A program made the translations under genes and the position numbers. 30,305 nt of DNA from Chloroflexota bacterium (GTDB taxonomy: Bacteria > Chloroflexota > Anaerolineae > Promineifilales > Promineifilaceae), in the NCBI GenBank assembly GCA_039029915.1, contig JBCCFD010000035.1:1-30305 (forward strand), read 5' to 3'. Of this stretch, positions 1-24,561 are shown piece by piece (positions within the stretch are counted from its first letter, which is position 1; each line of letters starts with the position of its first letter). Under the pieces are notes generated by a model. That model ran no database searches. It was not told where the DNA came from and saw only the letters and a program-made list of their open reading frames with translations.

Positions 1-2717
<2,717 letters not shown>

Positions 2718-3052
2718 CACATGATACGGAGAATTCGGCATTTCTACAGAAATGCATTACGTTCTGGTAAATCACGCCGGTTTTATCTCAATAAAGATAA
2801 ATATTTATGATTTACCTAGTAATTGACAGTCTCCAGCAACCTAATAAGGATGCATTCTGCCAACTACTCGAATTTTTTTAGAAATTTGATAAGATTATAT
2901 GTTCTTATTCAGTTATTAACGTGCAACTAGTTAACATCTTCGATAGACTGAGATGCTAATGAGTATCTTTTCTTATGAAAGACACTCGTTAATTTCACAA
3001 TCGATTTCGGAAGTGGTGAACTATTTTGTAACGAGGACTTTTAAGGATTTAG

Positions 3053-3125
3053 TGGAGATGAGGAGACTCGAACTCCTGACCTCCGCCGTGCAAAGGCGGC
3101 GCTCTCCCAACTGAGCTACATCCCC
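3053..3125 (-). tRNA. tRNA-Ala (anticodon UGC) in the 16S-23S spacer; CCA not encoded
   Basis: Reverse complement is GGGGATGTAGCTCAGTTGGGAGAGCGCCGCCTTTGCACGGCGGAGGTCAGGAGTTCGAGTCTCCTCATCTCCA, a canonical tRNA-Ala with a G3:U70 pair. Confidence 0.92.
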
Positions 3126-3137
3126 TCAATAAACAGG

Positions 3138-3211
3138 TGGGCCTGGTTGGACTCGAACCAACGACCTCTCCCTTATCAGAGGAACGCTCTAACCAGCTGA
3201 GCTACAAGCCC
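3138..3211 (-). tRNA. tRNA-Ile (anticodon GAU) in the 16S-23S spacer
   Basis: Reverse complement is GGGCTTGTAGCTCAGCTGGTTAGAGCGTTCCTCTGATAAGGGAGAGGTCGTTGGTTCGAGTCCAACCAGGCCCA. Confidence 0.92.
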
Positions 3212-3262
3212 TTCATTACTGTCCCTTAAAAGGTTTATTGTTAAAGGTGCTAAAAATTTAAC

Positions 3263-3280
3263 AACTAAAGAGTGACAGGA
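3263..3280 (-). other. 16S processing-stem half (3' flank); complementary to 4976-4993 in the 5' leader
   Basis: + strand 3263-3280 AACAACTAAAGAGTGACA is the reverse complement of 4976-4993 TGTCACTCTTTAGTTGTC. In the precursor the two would pair to bracket the 16S, like an RNase III processing stem. Confidence 0.6.
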
Positions 3281-3369
3281 ACCATCTTGCCTGAGCCAGA
3301 GCATATTAGCGGGGGCTAATATGACTGACCTGGTTTGGAGCAATATTCGCATATTGCTCAGTAACCTTA

Positions 3370-4876
<1,507 letters not shown>

Positions 4877-5040
4877 AAGAAAGTTTGGACTCTAATTAAA
4901 GAGTCAAAATCCGTGCTTTATATCACGGAACTAATCAAAGTTTTTCTGGACCCAAGCAATTTAACGATAGTTCTTGTCACTCTTTAGTTGTCAAAGTTCT
5001 ATTTTGGCTTTTCCAAACTCTCAATTGAGAGCGGTCTGGG

Positions 5041-6152: not shown

Positions 6153-7028
6153 CTAGTTCCCAGCCTGACGGTATCCATGCTGATGCTCTAAGAATTTTTC
6201 TACAAACTCACCGTCGATTGTGGCTTCATTTGTTGATAAAAGTTCTAGACAAAGATGGAGTGAAAGAAGACAAATACTACGCGGGTAACCCTTTGTCTCC
6301 TTCCATATAGGAAGGAAGGAGTCTTCGGAAAATAGCGGTGCTTGTTTTGAATCACGACCTGCGGCTAAGAGTCGATACTCAATCAAAGATTTTGTATCAT
6401 CTGGCGTTAGCGGATCCATTGAGGAACGGGTGGCCACCCTATCATTAAAATCTGGGACACCACGCAGATTGATATCCAAGTCTGGTCGGCCCAGCAAAAT
6501 AAGCTGAAACGCTTTGCCCCCCTTAGGGTCTCTAAAGTTAAGCAGTCGGCGAAGCTCTATAAACTGCTCCGGACTTAATTCGTGTGCCTCATCAATAATA
6601 ATTAGCGGCAGCACATTATCCTGCACGATATCAATAAGAAATGCACGGAATTCGTTAAGTTGATCTTCAGTTGCTCGTCGTGTTCTGATCCCAAATTCTG
6701 AGGCGATTCTTCTTAATAGGAGAAGGCCACTCTTTTTAGGCACCTCATCTACCTTAGCCGCCACAAAATCTGGACGACGATCGTAGCGGCTGTGGAACCA
6801 TGAGGCAAGGGTCGTTTTACCGGTGCCAATTTCCCCGACGATAACAGATGCTCCTTGGCCAGCTTCTACCATGTAACTAACTTTAGAGAGGGCGCGTCTT
6901 GTTTCGGTTGAGAGGTACATAAATCTTGGATCAGCTTCAATTGTAAAAGGGGGCACAACGACGCCGATGCGTTCCCAGTTTGGTGCGTATTGATCAAAAT
7001 CCAAGTCTAATTGATTGCCATTAAACAT
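6153..7028 (-). CDS. AAA+ ATPase of the ExeA/GspA-like (AAA_22) family
   Basis: Walker A GEIGTGKTT, Walker B IIIDEAHEL, and LILLGRPDL...GYPRSICLL, which matches the ExeA/GspA pattern (VLTGEVGTGKT..IDEAQNL..LVGQPEL..G.PR.IN.LC). Confidence 0.75.
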   Translation of the reverse strand: MFNGNQLDLDFDQYAPNWERIGVVVPPFTIEADPRFMYLSTETRRALSKVSYMVEAGQGASVIVGEIGTGKTTLASWFHSRYDRRPDFVAAKVDEVPKKSGLLLLRRIASEFGIRTRRATEDQLNEFRAFLIDIVQDNVLPLIIIDEAHELSPEQFIELRRLLNFRDPKGGKAFQLILLGRPDLDINLRGVPDFNDRVATRSSMDPLTPDDTKSLIEYRLLAAGRDSKQAPLFSEDSFLPIWKETKGYPRSICLLSLHLCLELLSTNEATIDGEFVEKFLEHQHGYRQAGN

Positions 7029-7143
7029 GTCCCTATGTTATATAACTCTATTTTGGTTGTCAAGAATAGGTAAAATCGCCAAAATAATGAGCAATAATTG
7101 ATTTAGTTGGTCAAAAAACGCAATCTATACCATATAGATTGAT

Positions 7144-7172
7144 TGACAGGGCAAAATAATTCTGTTAGACTG
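7144..7172 (+). promoter_or_regulatory. Promoter-like element TTGACA-17-TAGACT in the 737-bp intergenic region
   Basis: TTGACAGGGCAAAATAATTCTGTTAGACT. There is no obvious ORF downstream until 7766. Confidence 0.35.
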
Positions 7173-7409
7173 TCTCGAAATTTAGATTATGTTTATTAAA
7201 ATGGAAAGATAAGGTGGATATTGGGTATTTTCCGGTATGCACCAATCTTTGTGTTTATTGAGGAATTTTTCTGGAGGTTTTTCGATGTTTAAGCCGTTTG
7301 ATTAGATTTATGATACTGATTTGAGCTTTCAACGGCCGTTTCCCCGACGATGCTGCTTCTAGCAAAGATTCCGCCAAAATCTTGTCAATTGGAAATCGCT
7401 ATAGAAAAG

Positions 7410-15042: not shown

Positions 15043-15294
15043 GCTTGAAAGGCTGGTAAACCGTAATGGCAAGCAATAGCTAGTGAGTTGTTGTCAGTAA
15101 ATAGTGAATAACCATGTACCTAGGTCGTTGGTAGATAAAGCCAGCGACTTTTTTTGCCCCTTGACAAAGTGTATGATTTACACTAATATAGCTTGTATAG
15201 TGTTTGTGATACACTATCTACTTGATAAAACAACAATCAGTAACGGCAAAAACTGATTACTGATGACTTAATTCTTCACTAAACGAGGTGAGCC

Positions 15295-16128
15295 ATGTTA
15301 AAAGCAACTTTACTGATCGGATTTATGATTGTTCTCTCTGGGTTTGCTGGAGGAAATATGATGGTATTAACGGCCGTTACCGGCATTGCCATACTTGTTG
15401 GTTGGGCCATGTGGCAAAATACGGCCGTTTTTGTGCCAGAGATGCACACGGGAGTCGTGTATCGACATGGGGGGAGGGAGTATGCTCGCTTTCTTACTCC
15501 AGGGGATCACTTCATTAAACCATTTTCGGAAAAAGTGGGGGATTTTATACCGGTTGATCCCGGTTCGGTAAACGGTCGTTGTGATAGCATTCAAACGATC
15601 GGTGGCTTGCCGCTATCAATTGAGTGGACCATTTCATATAATCTCAATCCATTCCGAATTGCTCCTGAAAATCGGCCAAAGCTAGCCCGAAACCTGCCGC
15701 AAAAGTCTGGCAAGATTGTTCAAAAGCACACCAACAACATTTTACGCCACATTATAAGTGAATACAGCATTGAAGCACTGACCCAGCCGGGGATGCAGCG
15801 GAAATTAGAGCGACAGGTGCGTCAACAGGTGGCAGAACGGCTATCGGCGGCCGGGTTTGAGATTTCTCGAGTAATGATTGGGGCGATTGATATGCCGCCA
15901 CAGGTCACTGATGCGCTGGCTGAAGCGCTTAAGCGGCAGCTTCAAGCGGAGAACGAAGCGATAGCTTTGTCACGTTTGCAGTCGGTGGTCAGCCAATTTT
16001 CAGAAAATGATATGCAGCGATTGATCGAGCTAGAGCGTATCCACATGCTGGGTCAAAATGGGGTGACGCTAATGTATGCTCCACCTGCTGAGGTACAAAT
16101 GGGCTTGGGTAAACGGCCGTTGAACTAA
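15295..16128 (+). CDS. SPFH/band-7 (stomatin/prohibitin-like) membrane protein
   Basis: N-terminal TM, then an SPFH core (VVYRHGGREYARFLTPGDHFIKPF...) and a C-terminal coiled-coil/Ala-rich segment. SD GAGGTGA before the ATG. Confidence 0.75.
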   Translation: MLKATLLIGFMIVLSGFAGGNMMVLTAVTGIAILVGWAMWQNTAVFVPEMHTGVVYRHGGREYARFLTPGDHFIKPFSEKVGDFIPVDPGSVNGRCDSIQTIGGLPLSIEWTISYNLNPFRIAPENRPKLARNLPQKSGKIVQKHTNNILRHIISEYSIEALTQPGMQRKLERQVRQQVAERLSAAGFEISRVMIGAIDMPPQVTDALAEALKRQLQAENEAIALSRLQSVVSQFSENDMQRLIELERIHMLGQNGVTLMYAPPAEVQMGLGKRPLN

Positions 16129-16130
16129 AC

Positions 16131-16182
16131 TACTTCTGCTTATGTATCCTGAGCCTGTCGAAGGACACATAAGCAGAAGTGA
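16131..16182 (+). terminator. Hairpin CTTCTGCTTATGT...ACATAAGCAGAAG after the SPFH gene
   Basis: 13-bp perfect stem, no T-tract. Confidence 0.4.
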
Positions 16183-16196
16183 AAATTAATCACAAC

Positions 16197-16253
16197 CTCT
16201 GAGGCTTGCTGCGCATGATAAAATGCGTTGACGCAACGCTCAGAGGTTTTTTA
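16197..16253 (+). terminator. Rho-independent terminator AACCTCTGAGG...CCTCAGAGGTTTTTTA
   Basis: 9-bp stem with an internal GCGTTGACGCAACGC sub-hairpin, followed by a T6 run. Confidence 0.6.
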
Positions 16254-16390
16254 CATTTAGGAGACACACGTGACAGATACAATATCATACCGAGTGGTGG
16301 ATACCTGCTGAAGAATTAGAAAACCTAAACGACAATATTGTGGGTGAAATTGAGGTTGTTGTTGAGTTTCAATAGAGTGTGATTCGTTTC

Positions 16391-16589
16391 TGTGTAACGT
16401 CGAAATAAACGTAAGGGTGGGACGATTGGCAAGTGATGTGGGGCGTTCAAGTATTCTTGGCCCAATCGTCTCGCTCCTCGACTGACCTGCGCATGGGTGA
16501 GATGGCACGGTTCCGCATCTGTTATCTTTTGAAAATGGTGACCGTGCCATCCCACCCTGACGTACGAACACCTTTTCCCTCGTTACACA
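16391..16589. ncRNA. Candidate structured RNA or cis-regulatory element with nested, mutually exclusive stems; strand not determined
   Basis: Outer stem TGTGTAACG (16391-99) / CGTTACACA (16581-89). Stem GACGATTGG (16421-29) / CCAATCGTC (16462-70). 17-bp stem GGGTGAGATGGCACGGT (16495-511) / ACCGTGCCATCCCACCC (16541-57) with one mismatch. AGGGTGGGA (16414-22) is also perfectly complementary to TCCCACCCT (16549-57), giving an alternative fold. Confidence 0.4.
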
Positions 16590-16621
16590 ACTTTTGATTG
16601 CACTCGTTTCAATAAAACCTA

Positions 16622-16651
16622 TTGCAACATTAGGAACAAATGTTCTATAAT
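16622..16651 (+). promoter_or_regulatory. Promoter TTGCAA-18-TATAAT immediately upstream of the radical SAM ORF
   Basis: A perfect -10 ends 6 nt before the GTG at 16658, implying a leaderless or very short-leader mRNA unless a downstream start is used. Confidence 0.45.
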
Positions 16652-16657
16652 GAGTGA

Positions 16658-17875
16658 GTGGATGTAATAACTAAACTTCAAGATGTTGCCACTCACATGA
16701 ATCTGGAGCCTGATGGTGAACCAGCTAGGCAGCTGCCATTGGCTCAAGAAATAGCCCCTTGTGGGCAGTTGATTCCAAAAGCGCCACCTAACCCTCCAAA
16801 AGGGGATAAAAAATCGATAGGCATTTCCCATTTGATCATGCCAGGTGGCAAAACGCTACCTGCCCTAAAAACCATGTTGACAACCGCCTGCGAGCGGGAT
16901 TGCTACTACTGTCCGTTCCGAGCCGGGCGTTCATATCGCCGACAATCGTTTAAACCGGAAGAGATGGCCAAGACGTTTATGGATATGCATCGGGCAGGTT
17001 TAGTCAAAGGGTTATTTTTAAGCTCTGGCATTATCAAAGGGGGCGTGGCGACTCAAGATAGATTGATCGACACGGCCGATATTCTGCGAAATAAGTATCA
17101 ATATAAGGGATATTTGCACCTAAAAGTGATGCCTGGGGCAGAAAAAGACCAGGTTCGCCGCTCAATGGAACTGGCGAGTCGGTTATCTGTCAACCTGGAA
17201 GCCCCAAATGATAAACGGCTGGCCTTATTAGCACCTAAAAAACAGTTTGTTAACGAATTGGTAAAACCTCTCGAGTGGATTGAGCAAGTTAGGAAAAATG
17301 AACAACCGCTCAATTCTTGGAATACGCGCTGGCCCTCAAGTGTTACCCAATTTGTGGTGGGCGGTGTTGGTGAATCTGATCTTGAACTACTAATTATTAG
17401 TGAGCTACTCATAAAAAAATACAAACTGCAGAGAATCTACTACTCAGCCTTTCGCCCAATTATAGATACACCAATGGAAAATTTGCCTGCTGAAAATCCA
17501 ATGAGACAGCACCGACTGTATCAAACCTCGTTTTTGTTTCGAGATTATGGGTTTGACATGGAGGAAATGCCGTTTGATCGGGACGGCAACTTGCCGCTTG
17601 ATGAAGACCCCAAAATGGCGTGGGCTAATGCGCACCTTTTGGAAAATCCTGTTGAGGTGAATAAGGCTGAGCGCACAATACTGATACGGGTGCCCGGGGT
17701 GGGGCCAATTGGCGTAAAGCGCATCTTGAATGCGCGTCGTCAAGGCAAAATTCGAGACCTGGCTGACTTACGCAAGATTGGTGTGCCAACAAAGCGGCTT
17801 GAGTCATATGTACTCTTAGATGGTAAACGGCCGTTGCGCCAAATGCCACTGTTTCCCGTGAAGCAGAAGCCGTAA
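16658..17875 (+). CDS. Radical SAM protein with a C-terminal helix-hairpin-helix; resembles the 'putative DNA modification/repair radical SAM protein' family (TIGR03916-like)
   Basis: N-terminus MDVITKLQ..., Cys cluster ACERDCYYCPF (CxxxCxxC), and a C-terminal HhH IRVPGVGPIGVKRILNARRQG. GTG start; alternative ATG at 16697. Confidence 0.7.
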   Translation: MDVITKLQDVATHMNLEPDGEPARQLPLAQEIAPCGQLIPKAPPNPPKGDKKSIGISHLIMPGGKTLPALKTMLTTACERDCYYCPFRAGRSYRRQSFKPEEMAKTFMDMHRAGLVKGLFLSSGIIKGGVATQDRLIDTADILRNKYQYKGYLHLKVMPGAEKDQVRRSMELASRLSVNLEAPNDKRLALLAPKKQFVNELVKPLEWIEQVRKNEQPLNSWNTRWPSSVTQFVVGGVGESDLELLIISELLIKKYKLQRIYYSAFRPIIDTPMENLPAENPMRQHRLYQTSFLFRDYGFDMEEMPFDRDGNLPLDEDPKMAWANAHLLENPVEVNKAERTILIRVPGVGPIGVKRILNARRQGKIRDLADLRKIGVPTKRLESYVLLDGKRPLRQMPLFPVKQKP

Positions 17876-19922: not shown

Positions 19923-21443
19923 CTATTCTGTATTGAGGGTCTTCAACTTCTGCCACGCCTCAACCCTATCTTTTACCTCAACTTGAACTGTCAAATCTGC
20001 CAAAATATCATCCACATATTGCGCTTGCCGCATGCCCACAAGCGTACAGCTCACCCCTTTTGTGCTTCGCAATGCCCGAATGGCCGTTTGGCTTAATGTA
20101 TTTGCTTTCCAATCGGCTGAGATGGAAACGGCCGTTTCTTGAATCTGCAGGGCCTCTTTTGCACCAGCCTCCTGATAAAATGCTGCCACAGCCATCAAGG
20201 TTTCATTAAATCGGTCAACATATGAATTCAACCAATCGATTAGGTCATCAGATGCCTTGGCATGCTGTGATAAAAATTGAATGGCTGATTCAGCTCTTGG
20301 AATAAAAAACTGTGCCTGTAGCTGATGCCAATTTTGATAAGTTTCAAATCCTTGCCACTTACCATCCAGCATTTGGCCTAGGGCTAGATATTCTAAGAGC
20401 TGTTGATTTGTTTGGGCATCTTCTGCCAGGATCGGCAACCATCTATCAGCAAACTCAGCTTCAGCTTGAACCAAACTGTCAACCAAGGTAGACACTTCTT
20501 CAACTGTTGTCGGGTAACTTGGTGGCTGCACGTCAGCGAGTCGGATAAGCTGATCATTGTGAAAGGCATTTAATGGTCGATTAATTAAAACGGTCAAATT
20601 GTTTGCTTCAGCATATGCAATTGTGCTTTCTAAGTTGGGCATATTTTGTTCTGTCAAGCCACCTGTTTCAAACAGATTAAACGGTAGCTGAATAAACTTG
20701 AAATGATGCTCAGGCGAAATCGATTCTGCAATTTCCAGCACCTTTGCTAGGGATGTAAATGTATATTCATCTTTCGTTAACGGGAAGGTGTTTGAGCTGA
20801 TGCCATACCATTGAATTTTGCCCTCAGAAACGGCCGTTTCTAAATATTCAAAAGCTAACTTGATGCGTTTGTAATACTCTTTTTGTGCGCTTTCTTGTGG
20901 AATTGTGGCAACTTTTGCCCAGCTTAGATAATATTCAGGATTATGGAGCAAATAAGCATCAATGGTATTGAGTTGTAATCGATGTAAACTTTTTTGGAGT
21001 TGATCTTCAATGAACTCAGGATGAATGCAGTGATCAAGCCCTTGGCTGTATTTGACTAAGTTTGGAAACGGTCTCCCCTGTCTTCGCCGTTGTCTAGCCA
21101 TTTCATAATTTTGTCCTTGCAGATACCCCACTTTTGAAACAACAACGACTTCTTCGCGATTTAGCTTTTTTTCACTGCATAACTGAGAAAGCACCTCACC
21201 AACAAGTTCTTCGGAACGGCCATCAGCATAATTTGTGCTTGTGTCTATCACATTGACACCCTGCCCAAGCGCTTTTATCAAAGCTTTTTTATGTTGTTCA
21301 TTTCCTGTAGAGATTCGGTAACAGCCAAAACCAACCTGACTAATTTTTAATGAGGTGCTCGATAGCAGGTTTGATTGGATGGTGTTATGACGGGAAAAAT
21401 AAACTGTTGTGCCCTGAAGAGTTGCACCATTACTCTGGGTCAT
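19923..21443 (-). CDS. Aldo/keto reductase family oxidoreductase with a large internal or C-terminal insertion (506 aa)
   Basis: Start set at MTQSNG with AAGGAG 5 nt upstream; the track starts 5 codons earlier. AKR N-terminal core (GFGCYRI...ALGQGVNVIDTSTNYADGRSEELVGEVL) and an AKR-like C-terminal LVGMRQAQYVDDILADL, with about 150 extra residues in between. Confidence 0.7.
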   Translation of the reverse strand: MTQSNGATLQGTTVYFSRHNTIQSNLLSSTSLKISQVGFGCYRISTGNEQHKKALIKALGQGVNVIDTSTNYADGRSEELVGEVLSQLCSEKKLNREEVVVVSKVGYLQGQNYEMARQRRRQGRPFPNLVKYSQGLDHCIHPEFIEDQLQKSLHRLQLNTIDAYLLHNPEYYLSWAKVATIPQESAQKEYYKRIKLAFEYLETAVSEGKIQWYGISSNTFPLTKDEYTFTSLAKVLEIAESISPEHHFKFIQLPFNLFETGGLTEQNMPNLESTIAYAEANNLTVLINRPLNAFHNDQLIRLADVQPPSYPTTVEEVSTLVDSLVQAEAEFADRWLPILAEDAQTNQQLLEYLALGQMLDGKWQGFETYQNWHQLQAQFFIPRAESAIQFLSQHAKASDDLIDWLNSYVDRFNETLMAVAAFYQEAGAKEALQIQETAVSISADWKANTLSQTAIRALRSTKGVSCTLVGMRQAQYVDDILADLTVQVEVKDRVEAWQKLKTLNTE

Positions 21444-24470: not shown

Positions 24471-24521
24471 ACCATATCACGAAGGGAGTAGGGCGTCAAC
24501 GAACTGTCAACCAAGGTTGAC
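24471..24521 (-). promoter_or_regulatory. parA promoter (TTGACG-17-TATGGT on the minus strand) overlapped by GTCAAC repeats and the palindrome GTCAACCAAGGTTGAC
   Basis: GTCAAC at 24495 and 24506; perfect palindrome at 24506-24521. Candidate ParA/ParB autoregulatory operator. Confidence 0.45.
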
Positions 24522-24561
24522 ACTTTGTAAAAGACAGGTGGTAAGCCTTAATTGATAACTG

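Follow-up and report, generated by a model that had tools for sequence, protein, structure and literature searches.

A two-hairpin element in a variable SPFH–radical SAM spacer of an uncultured Chloroflexota: a candidate structured RNA

The window, by which we mean the whole stretch of DNA analysed here, is a 30,305-nt contig from the MAG of an uncultured Chloroflexota, and comparisons of its radical SAM and SPFH proteins place the host among Anaerolineae-like Chloroflexota. According to contig annotation and scanning, an rRNA operon occupies positions 1-4877 on the minus strand, and parA/parB-like genes are present on the same contig. A run of plus-strand genes comprises an SPFH/Band 7 gene (15295-16128), a radical SAM + HhH gene (start at 16658 or 16697, end at 17875), a GNAT gene, a gene for a beta-propeller protein and DUF6504. 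The radical SAM product (MEM7331524.1) scored 281 bits against TIGR03916, “putative DNA modification/repair radical SAM protein”, which is below the curated cut-off of 343. The element that is the subject of this report lies between the first two genes of this run, and both of these flanking genes are syntenic core genes. In a Pfam scan of all large ORFs of the 30-kb contig no transposase, integrase, recombinase or RAYT was identified.

Two repeats were observed on the contig. The palindrome ACGGCCGT, mostly present as AACGGCCGTT, was found in 30 copies in 30 kb compared to 0.23 expected (e.g., at 7332, 8081, 16113 and 17827). Its copies are mostly intragenic. Relatives also have it at conserved positions, such as the 3′ end of the SPFH gene, and it has the appearance of a highly iterated, HIP1-style palindrome of the lineage; as had been stated in the preliminary description, the element itself contains no copy. 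The second is a 24-nt direct repeat (20474-20497 and 24502-24525, 96% identical) of sequence AACTGTCAACCAAGGT(A/T)GACACTT; an aldo/keto reductase ORF contains one copy and the spacer beside parA the other, and the copy at 24502-24525 is itself palindromic (TGTCAACC..GGTTGACA).

The region upstream of the SPFH gene (15124-15215) contains a terminator followed by a strongly conserved promoter, TTGACA (15161-66)-17-TAATAT, which overlaps the palindromes AGTGTA-N5-TACACT and ATAGTGT-N7-ACACTAT and is nearly identical in the related locus L118; this arrangement suggests that the SPFH promoter is under the control of an operator. Downstream of the gene, the sequence and an inverted-repeat search revealed two plus-strand hairpins (16132-16180 and 16194-16248) followed by a T-run ending at 16253. 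Together (16132-16253) they are the canonical intrinsic terminator of the SPFH gene, located upstream of the element. The same hairpins (16131-16252) gave a sub-threshold match to the Rfam family 23S-methyl (RF01065), scoring 34 bits, below the gathering score of 50. The likeness consists in two hairpins of which the second is a terminator with a U-run, but those of the window follow an SPFH gene rather than precede an rRNA methyltransferase gene and are absent from L118, and we take the resemblance as generic. The loop motif of the first hairpin, GAGCCTGTCGA, recurs twice in inverted orientation directly after the SPFH gene of the related locus L161 (933-943 and 979-989).

Between this terminator and the element lies what we read as the remnant of a 114-aa accessory gene that has suffered an internal deletion (plus strand, 16259-16375), found by blastn and BLASTP comparison with the related locus L125, where the intact gene occupies positions 6843-7187. 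The relic retains a Shine-Dalgarno sequence and, from the GTG start codon onwards, about eight N-terminal codons, followed after the internal deletion by the last 30 codons and the stop codon (16283-16375). In BLASTP, window positions 16283-16372 matched residues 85-114 of the L125 protein with 70% identity over 30 aa (E = 2e-14), and the blastn match of the relic to L125 7101-7181 showed 75% identity over 81 nt; the resemblance of the N-terminal part to the L125 gene is our inference from the sequence. The element begins directly after the stop codon of the relic. In L125 the corresponding position, 3′ of the intact gene (7188-7308), is occupied by an unrelated long hairpin (z = -2.3) with a tandem AGACGTTGCAGAACA repeat.

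On its other side the element is followed by the radical SAM promoter, TTGCAA-18-TATAAT on the plus strand at 16622-16651, outside the element; a promoter scan confirmed both this site and its position downstream, as previously proposed. Abutting the -10 is a GAAC-N4-GTTC (LexA-type) box, GAACAAATGTTC (16634-16645), so that box and TATAAT together span 16634-16651. The motif class to which this box belongs has been described (PMC4951493). The string GAACAAA(T/C)GTTCTATAAT precedes the radical SAM gene as a conserved sequence in each of the eight related loci (L118-L125), with the box and TATAAT located, for instance, at 3108-3124 in L118, 2799-2815 in L120, 6941-6957 in L123 and 7340-7356 in L125. 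Judged from the sequence, the LexA-type box would imply SOS control of the radical SAM-GNAT-propeller-DUF6504 cluster. Since this promoter lies downstream of the element, the element is outside the radical SAM transcription unit.

The preliminary description had proposed four pairings between 16391 and 16589, and all four can indeed be formed: a perfect 9-bp pairing of 16391-99 with 16581-89, a perfect 9-bp pairing of 16421-29 with 16462-70, a 17-bp pairing (94%) of 16495-511 with 16541-57, and one between AGGGTGGGA (16414-22) and TCCCACCCT, the latter located at 16550-58 and thus 1 nt from the 16549-57 originally given. This last pairing extends to 14 nt at 93% (16409-22 / 16550-63). The weight of the architecture, however, is carried by only two hairpins, HP2 and HP3, while the outer stem is at chance level. 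According to the minimum free energy fold and RNAalifold, the “9-bp stem with 32-nt loop” is the core of HP2 (plus strand, 16414-16478), a hairpin with a 16-bp basal stem, AGGGTGGGACGATTGG / CCAATCGTCTCGC-TCC, interrupted by one bulge. Its 5′ side carries an asymmetric internal loop that includes the single-stranded 13-nt block UGGGGCGUUCAAG (16439-16451), and its apex consists of a 5-bp stem with a variable tetraloop. HP3 (plus strand, 16495-16557) was recovered by the inverted-repeat search as well as by consensus folding. Its 17-bp stem, GGGTGAGATGGCACGGT / ACCGTGCCATCCCACCC, encloses a 29-nt loop and includes a single A-C mismatch that is kept in both genomes carrying the element.

These two hairpins are far beyond chance. 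The 199-nt stretch folds better than 200 out of 200 shuffles (z = -4.1 on the plus strand and -5.2 on the minus strand), the L118 copy likewise folds far better than its shuffles (z = -3.2), and three perfect 12-mer inverted repeats were observed compared to 0.01 expected. The outer repeat, with arms TGTGTAACG (16391-16399) and CGTTACACA (16581-16589) and assigned to neither strand, behaves differently: when the 651-nt region is shuffled, 45% of the resulting sequences have at least one perfect 9-bp inverted repeat, and in L118, the sole homologue, the corresponding segments are TATGGAACG and CCTTAAACG, of which 4-5 out of 9 positions could pair. We have therefore dropped the outer stem from the architecture. 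Tentatively, and as one part of a joint reading to which we give a little less than an even chance, the element can be delimited as about 190 nt (16374-16563) with two independently folding long hairpins. In this delimitation the conserved 5′ flank (plus strand, 16374-16413; aligned with L118 2749-2796) contains a weak 3-bp mini-hairpin (16398-400 / 16409-11) as well as the 5′ arm of the outer repeat, and the homology with L118 begins 17 nt upstream of that supposed terminal repeat. The tail between HP3 and the radical SAM promoter (plus strand, 16558-16621) is weakly conserved, with 54% identity to L118, where its counterpart has an extra insertion of about 95 nt.

L118 carries the only other copy found, in the same spacer between the SPFH and radical SAM genes (2749-2947, matching window positions 16374-16563), and its proteins are 90% identical to those of the window. 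The comparative alignment of these two copies, which had been suggested as a check, showed that the stems of HP2 and HP3 are conserved: 91% identity was found in the HP2 stem and 88% in the HP3 stem, compared to 72% in the apical part of HP2 and 37% in the HP3 loop. At four-fold degenerate sites of the flanking genes the two genomes are 39-41% identical, i.e. essentially saturated, and the HP3 loop has thus drifted to the neutral level, which the stems have not. Within the internal loop of HP2 the UGGGGCGUUCAAG block is invariant, while adjacent loop positions vary. Most stem changes keep the pairing: there is one clean compensatory change from G-C to A-U in HP3 (alignment columns 96/139), several single changes are accommodated via G-U, and L118 has lost two of the HP3 pairs. 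Because only two sequences are available the covariation is statistically weak, and in a shuffle control (n = 2 sequences) 112 out of 500 shuffles reached the observed score, which is not significant. The overall identity is not exceptional either, as other spacers of this genome pair are 62-81% identical, and the argument consequently rests on the contrast between stems and loop. This contrast suggests, as a further part of the same joint and still tentative reading, that the HP2 and HP3 stems may be under purifying selection.

As for the strand, 76 of the 80 stem cells pair on the plus strand and 70 of the 80 on the minus strand. Seven of the discriminating pair positions, all of them G-U, favour the plus strand, and a single one, the A-C of HP3, favours the minus strand. 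All six variable or G-U positions of HP2 are compatible with pairing on the plus strand only, which by sequence clearly marks HP2 as a plus-strand structure; HP3 by itself gives no clear strand. With RNAalifold the consensus fold reaches -53.3 kcal/mol on the plus strand versus -39.8 kcal/mol on the minus strand, and a covariance model built on the plus strand scored 176 and 174 bits on that strand versus 34 and 42 bits on the other, a contrast that is partly circular. The idea of a small structured, possibly independent non-coding RNA is supported as far as two sequences allow, with conserved stems, a drifted HP3 loop, one compensatory change and G-U pairs pointing to the plus strand. A divergent, LexA-controlled promoter for a minus-strand RNA was also considered and rejected, as no promoter-like site was found. 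A protein-coding small ORF was rejected as well: no reading frame is conserved, with ORF lengths and frames differing between the window and L118, a 1-nt indel falls inside a conserved block of the element, and there is no Pfam hit. A six-frame translation of the element, used as protein query against 5.8 billion called proteins, returned no match at E up to 10.

The distribution of the element was investigated among relatives of the locus. The cluster of radical SAM proteins at 90% identity comprises five members (the window, L118, L123, L124 and L125), all of which were compared, together with several more distant loci. L118 (radical SAM 90% identical to the window) carries the element in the same spacer. 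L123 and L124 (92%) have a 127-nt spacer with an ordinary terminator, and in L125 (90%, and 94% to L118) the 114-aa ORF is followed by unrelated sequence. Among the more distant loci, L120 (78%) has an unrelated 111-aa ORF in the spacer and L122 (73%) has RpiB, while L121 (75%) shows a gap of 90 nt upstream of the radical SAM gene with no SPFH gene called adjacent. The element is absent from all of these (L120 to L125), and it was not seen in the 217 nt available of L119. In L161 and L162, compared by their SPFH proteins (87% and 80% identical, respectively; radical SAM identity not applicable), other sequence directly follows the SPFH stop codon. As L123, L124 and L125 are equally close relatives and lack the element, it is dispensable. 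The spacer (16129-16621 in the window) therefore differs in content from relative to relative, holding the 114-aa ORF, the unrelated 111-aa ORF, RpiB, a terminator only or low-complexity repeats, and it is a hypervariable turnover hotspot, with the window as a mosaic sharing pieces with several relatives. Neither the 114-aa nor the 111-aa spacer ORF was assigned to a family by PADLOC, NCBIfam or Pfam.

The covariance-model check that had been recommended bore out the impression that no known riboswitch class is involved: none of the 4227 Rfam 15 models gave a hit at its gathering score, and at E up to 10 only hits to miRNA-precursor-like hairpins were obtained, with 14-22 bits and differing between the window and L118. 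ARAGORN detected no tRNA or tmRNA in the element. A tRNA-like T-arm considered for the GUUCAAGU loop was rejected, since the loop has no flanking complementary bases and ARAGORN was negative. No second copy was found in the 30-kb contig or in about 65 kb of related loci, and a covariance model run with filters off over the window and all related loci recovered the copies of the window and L118 and nothing else, apart from a weak hit of 6 bits in L125 that we regard as noise. A scan of 596 Gb of genome contigs with the 17-mer GGGTGRGATGGCACGGT yielded 117 loci, all of them chance matches to a pattern that is too short. In the JGI metagenome, GGGGCGTTCAAG-N7-11-CCCAATCGTC had no match; a metagenome scan with ATGGGTGAGATGNCACGG returned 27 loci matching over the seed only, and two seed scans of IMG/VR gave seed-only chance matches. 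Blastn in distant mode against plasmid and phage collections gave no match. Taken over the contig, the about 65 kb of relatives, the metagenome and viral seed scans and the plasmid and phage collections, there was no match to a known repeat or REP family.

Among the possible explanations, the one we favour, with a confidence somewhat short of even, is that the element is a lineage-restricted structured RNA module, read on the plus strand and belonging to the upstream transcription unit. It would then be part of the unit of the SPFH gene or of the decayed 114-aa accessory gene rather than of the radical SAM gene, and may act in cis as a stable 3′-proximal structure that stops, pauses or stabilises upstream transcripts ahead of the DNA-damage-regulated promoter. 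Within HP2, the invariant unpaired block UGGGGCGUUCAAG could be a contact site for a protein or an RNA, and a processed small RNA derived from the 3′-UTR would be an equally compatible variant. That the element is transcribed, and in which role, is proposed here from sequence comparison. In the window the canonical terminator at 16194-16253 lies between the SPFH gene and the element, so that transcription across the element is not assured, and a scan found no conserved promoter upstream of the element and no U-tract terminator downstream of it. Canonical T-run terminators are used nearby (16194-16253 and 15124-15156), which argues that HP2 and HP3 are not ordinary terminators.

An independent small RNA, acting in trans or sequestering a protein, with its own unrecognised promoter, a processed 3′ end and UGGGGCGUUCAAG as seed or binding site, is unlikely. 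It would account for the invariance of the 13-nt single-stranded block amid varying loop positions, and it agrees with the strand bias, which points to RNA, and with a conservation that persists although the window and L118 have different upstream genes. However, no conserved promoter-like site upstream and no intrinsic terminator downstream were found on either strand, no Rfam family is matched, and sites in the window complementary to the block with at most three mismatches numbered 5 compared to 8.4 expected, which is not beyond chance.

Rather unlikely, too, is a DNA-level element belonging to a cassette, either mobile or accessory, such as an attC-like recombination site of folded single-stranded DNA, a non-autonomous transposon of the MITE or PATE type or a REP-like repeat, that arrived with the 114-aa gene at a spacer acting as insertion hotspot. 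Such an origin would agree with the hypervariable spacer (the 114-aa ORF in L125, the 111-aa ORF in L120, RpiB in L122, nothing in L123), with the position directly 3′ of the relic and with the patchy distribution among close relatives. Integron attC sites are about 57-141 bp long and combine paired L boxes with the core sites RYYYAAC ... GTTRRRY. The outer repeat of the window, GTGTAAC...GTTACAC, matches these core sites at 6 of 7 positions each, the 14-nt inner pairing could play the L boxes, and, read by eye, homology with the “empty” L123 spacer resumes at about 16592, 2-3 nt past the outer repeat. Nevertheless, the 199 nt exceed the usual attC range, and in L118 the corresponding sequences, ATGGAAC and CTTAAAC, cannot pair. 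The Pfam scan of the contig showed no integrase or recombinase and the flanking genes are syntenic core genes, besides the absence of transposases and RAYTs mentioned above. Nor do the terminal repeats behave as those of a MITE or REP, as the 9-bp repeat is at chance level and is not kept in L118, whose homology continues for 17 nt past it, and no target-site duplication is present. No second copy was found in the window, the about 65 kb of relatives, the JGI metagenome and IMG/VR seed scans, the plasmids or the phages, and no ORF was ever called over the element. Finally, a decaying insertion would not hold its stems at about 90% identity while the loop saturates, and homologous flanks on both sides in two genomes point to one ancestral event instead of repeated insertion.

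Improbable as well is the absence of any present function, with the hairpins as the leftover 3′ end (terminator or stabiliser) of the lost accessory gene, kept by chance or by slow change of stems. In the window the element does sit beside a dead gene; L123 has lost it with nothing in its place, L125 has unrelated sequence instead, and only two copies are known. Without selection, however, the stems should have drifted to the level of the HP3 loop (37%) or of the four-fold sites (39-41%), instead of the 88-91% observed, and the 13-nt loop block would not be expected to stay invariant.

A regulatory switch had been suggested by the mutually exclusive pairings, and an alternative pairing does exist, because HP2 and HP3 both open with the octamer GGGTGRGA. 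Four segments carry this octamer or its complement, GGGTGGGA, TCTC(G/A)C(T)CC, GGGTGAGA and TCCCACCC, the second and the last being the 3′ bases of the hairpins, so that either 1:2 + 3:4 or 2:3 + 1:4 could form. When the pairing 16414-22 / 16549-57 is forced, the window folds at -52.4 instead of -67.4 kcal/mol, about 15 kcal/mol worse, while in L118, where the 3′ base of HP2 perfectly matches the 5′ base of HP3, the alternative is nearly iso-energetic (-62.3 vs -62.9 kcal/mol). A conserved alternative-fold switch is not supported. We consider it very improbable that the octamer segments form a new class of cis-acting RNA switch that would sense a signal or bind a protein and thereby gate upstream read-through into the SOS-controlled radical SAM operon; if true, this would provide a LexA-independent second input to a DNA-repair radical SAM operon in Anaerolineae-like Chloroflexota.

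As to an expression platform, a U-tract is missing after both hairpins (HP3 runs into CTGACGTACGAACACC and then a 4-T run, HP2 into CTCGACTGACC), the terminator scan reported no terminator-like site in or after the element on the plus strand, and no conserved start codon or Shine-Dalgarno sequence lies in a stem. A T-box, considered for the GGGUGG string, was rejected for want of an Rfam hit, the wrong polarity of the competing strands and the lack of an aminoacyl-tRNA-related gene. The weakest reading, a riboswitch or attenuator of the radical SAM gene itself as originally suggested, is largely refuted by the position of the promoter and is hardly credible: the four segments and the near-balance of folds in L118 would permit it, and a plus-strand transcript crossing the element would enter the gene with no intervening terminator, but the element ends at 16563 or 16589, before the conserved promoter with its LexA-type box and hence outside the 5′ UTR, it is present in the window and L118 only whereas the orthologues in L120-L125 lack it, as does the stretch of 217 nt available of L119, and still keep their promoter, HP3 lacks a U-tract and masks neither a start codon nor a ribosome-binding site, the alternative fold of the window is disfavoured, and no riboswitch or T-box model of Rfam matches even at E up to 10.

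If transcribed, the plus-strand module favoured here would represent an uncatalogued structured RNA in a poorly studied and largely uncultured phylum. Given its location beside a radical SAM repair gene under DNA-damage control, it might also be relevant to the way in which promoters of this type are protected against transcription arriving from upstream. For now, two instances and a patchy distribution make it a candidate motif rather than a discovery. The practical outcome is a negative one, in that a tempting but mistaken riboswitch annotation can be removed, and the spacer emerges as a hotspot of gene turnover.

Compared with known systems, the four octamer segments recall those of four-segment attenuators and riboswitch platforms, in that they allow 1:2 + 3:4 or 2:3 + 1:4, but the element lies upstream of the gene's promoter, has no U-tract, leader peptide or sequestered ribosome-binding site and is absent at orthologous loci. 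With attC sites, MITEs and REP elements it shares an imperfectly palindromic structure, a position immediately behind a small accessory ORF within a variable spacer and, in the window, an outer repeat resembling RYYYAAC / GTTRRRY; it differs in being single copy where searched, with no integrase or transposase nearby, an unconserved outer repeat, a length outside the attC range and no target-site duplication. It resembles the orphan intergenic RNA motifs of the Rfam type in being short and non-coding, with compensatory and G-U changes in its stems, variable loops and a narrow lineage, although it matches no Rfam 15 model at gathering score and its two instances are too few for a family. Like intrinsic terminators and 3′-stabiliser hairpins, HP2 and HP3 are GC-rich and long and are located 3′ of a gene, on the coding strand and before the next promoter; they differ from these in having no U-tract and in a sequence conservation, including an invariant block in the loop, that exceeds the requirements of a terminator.
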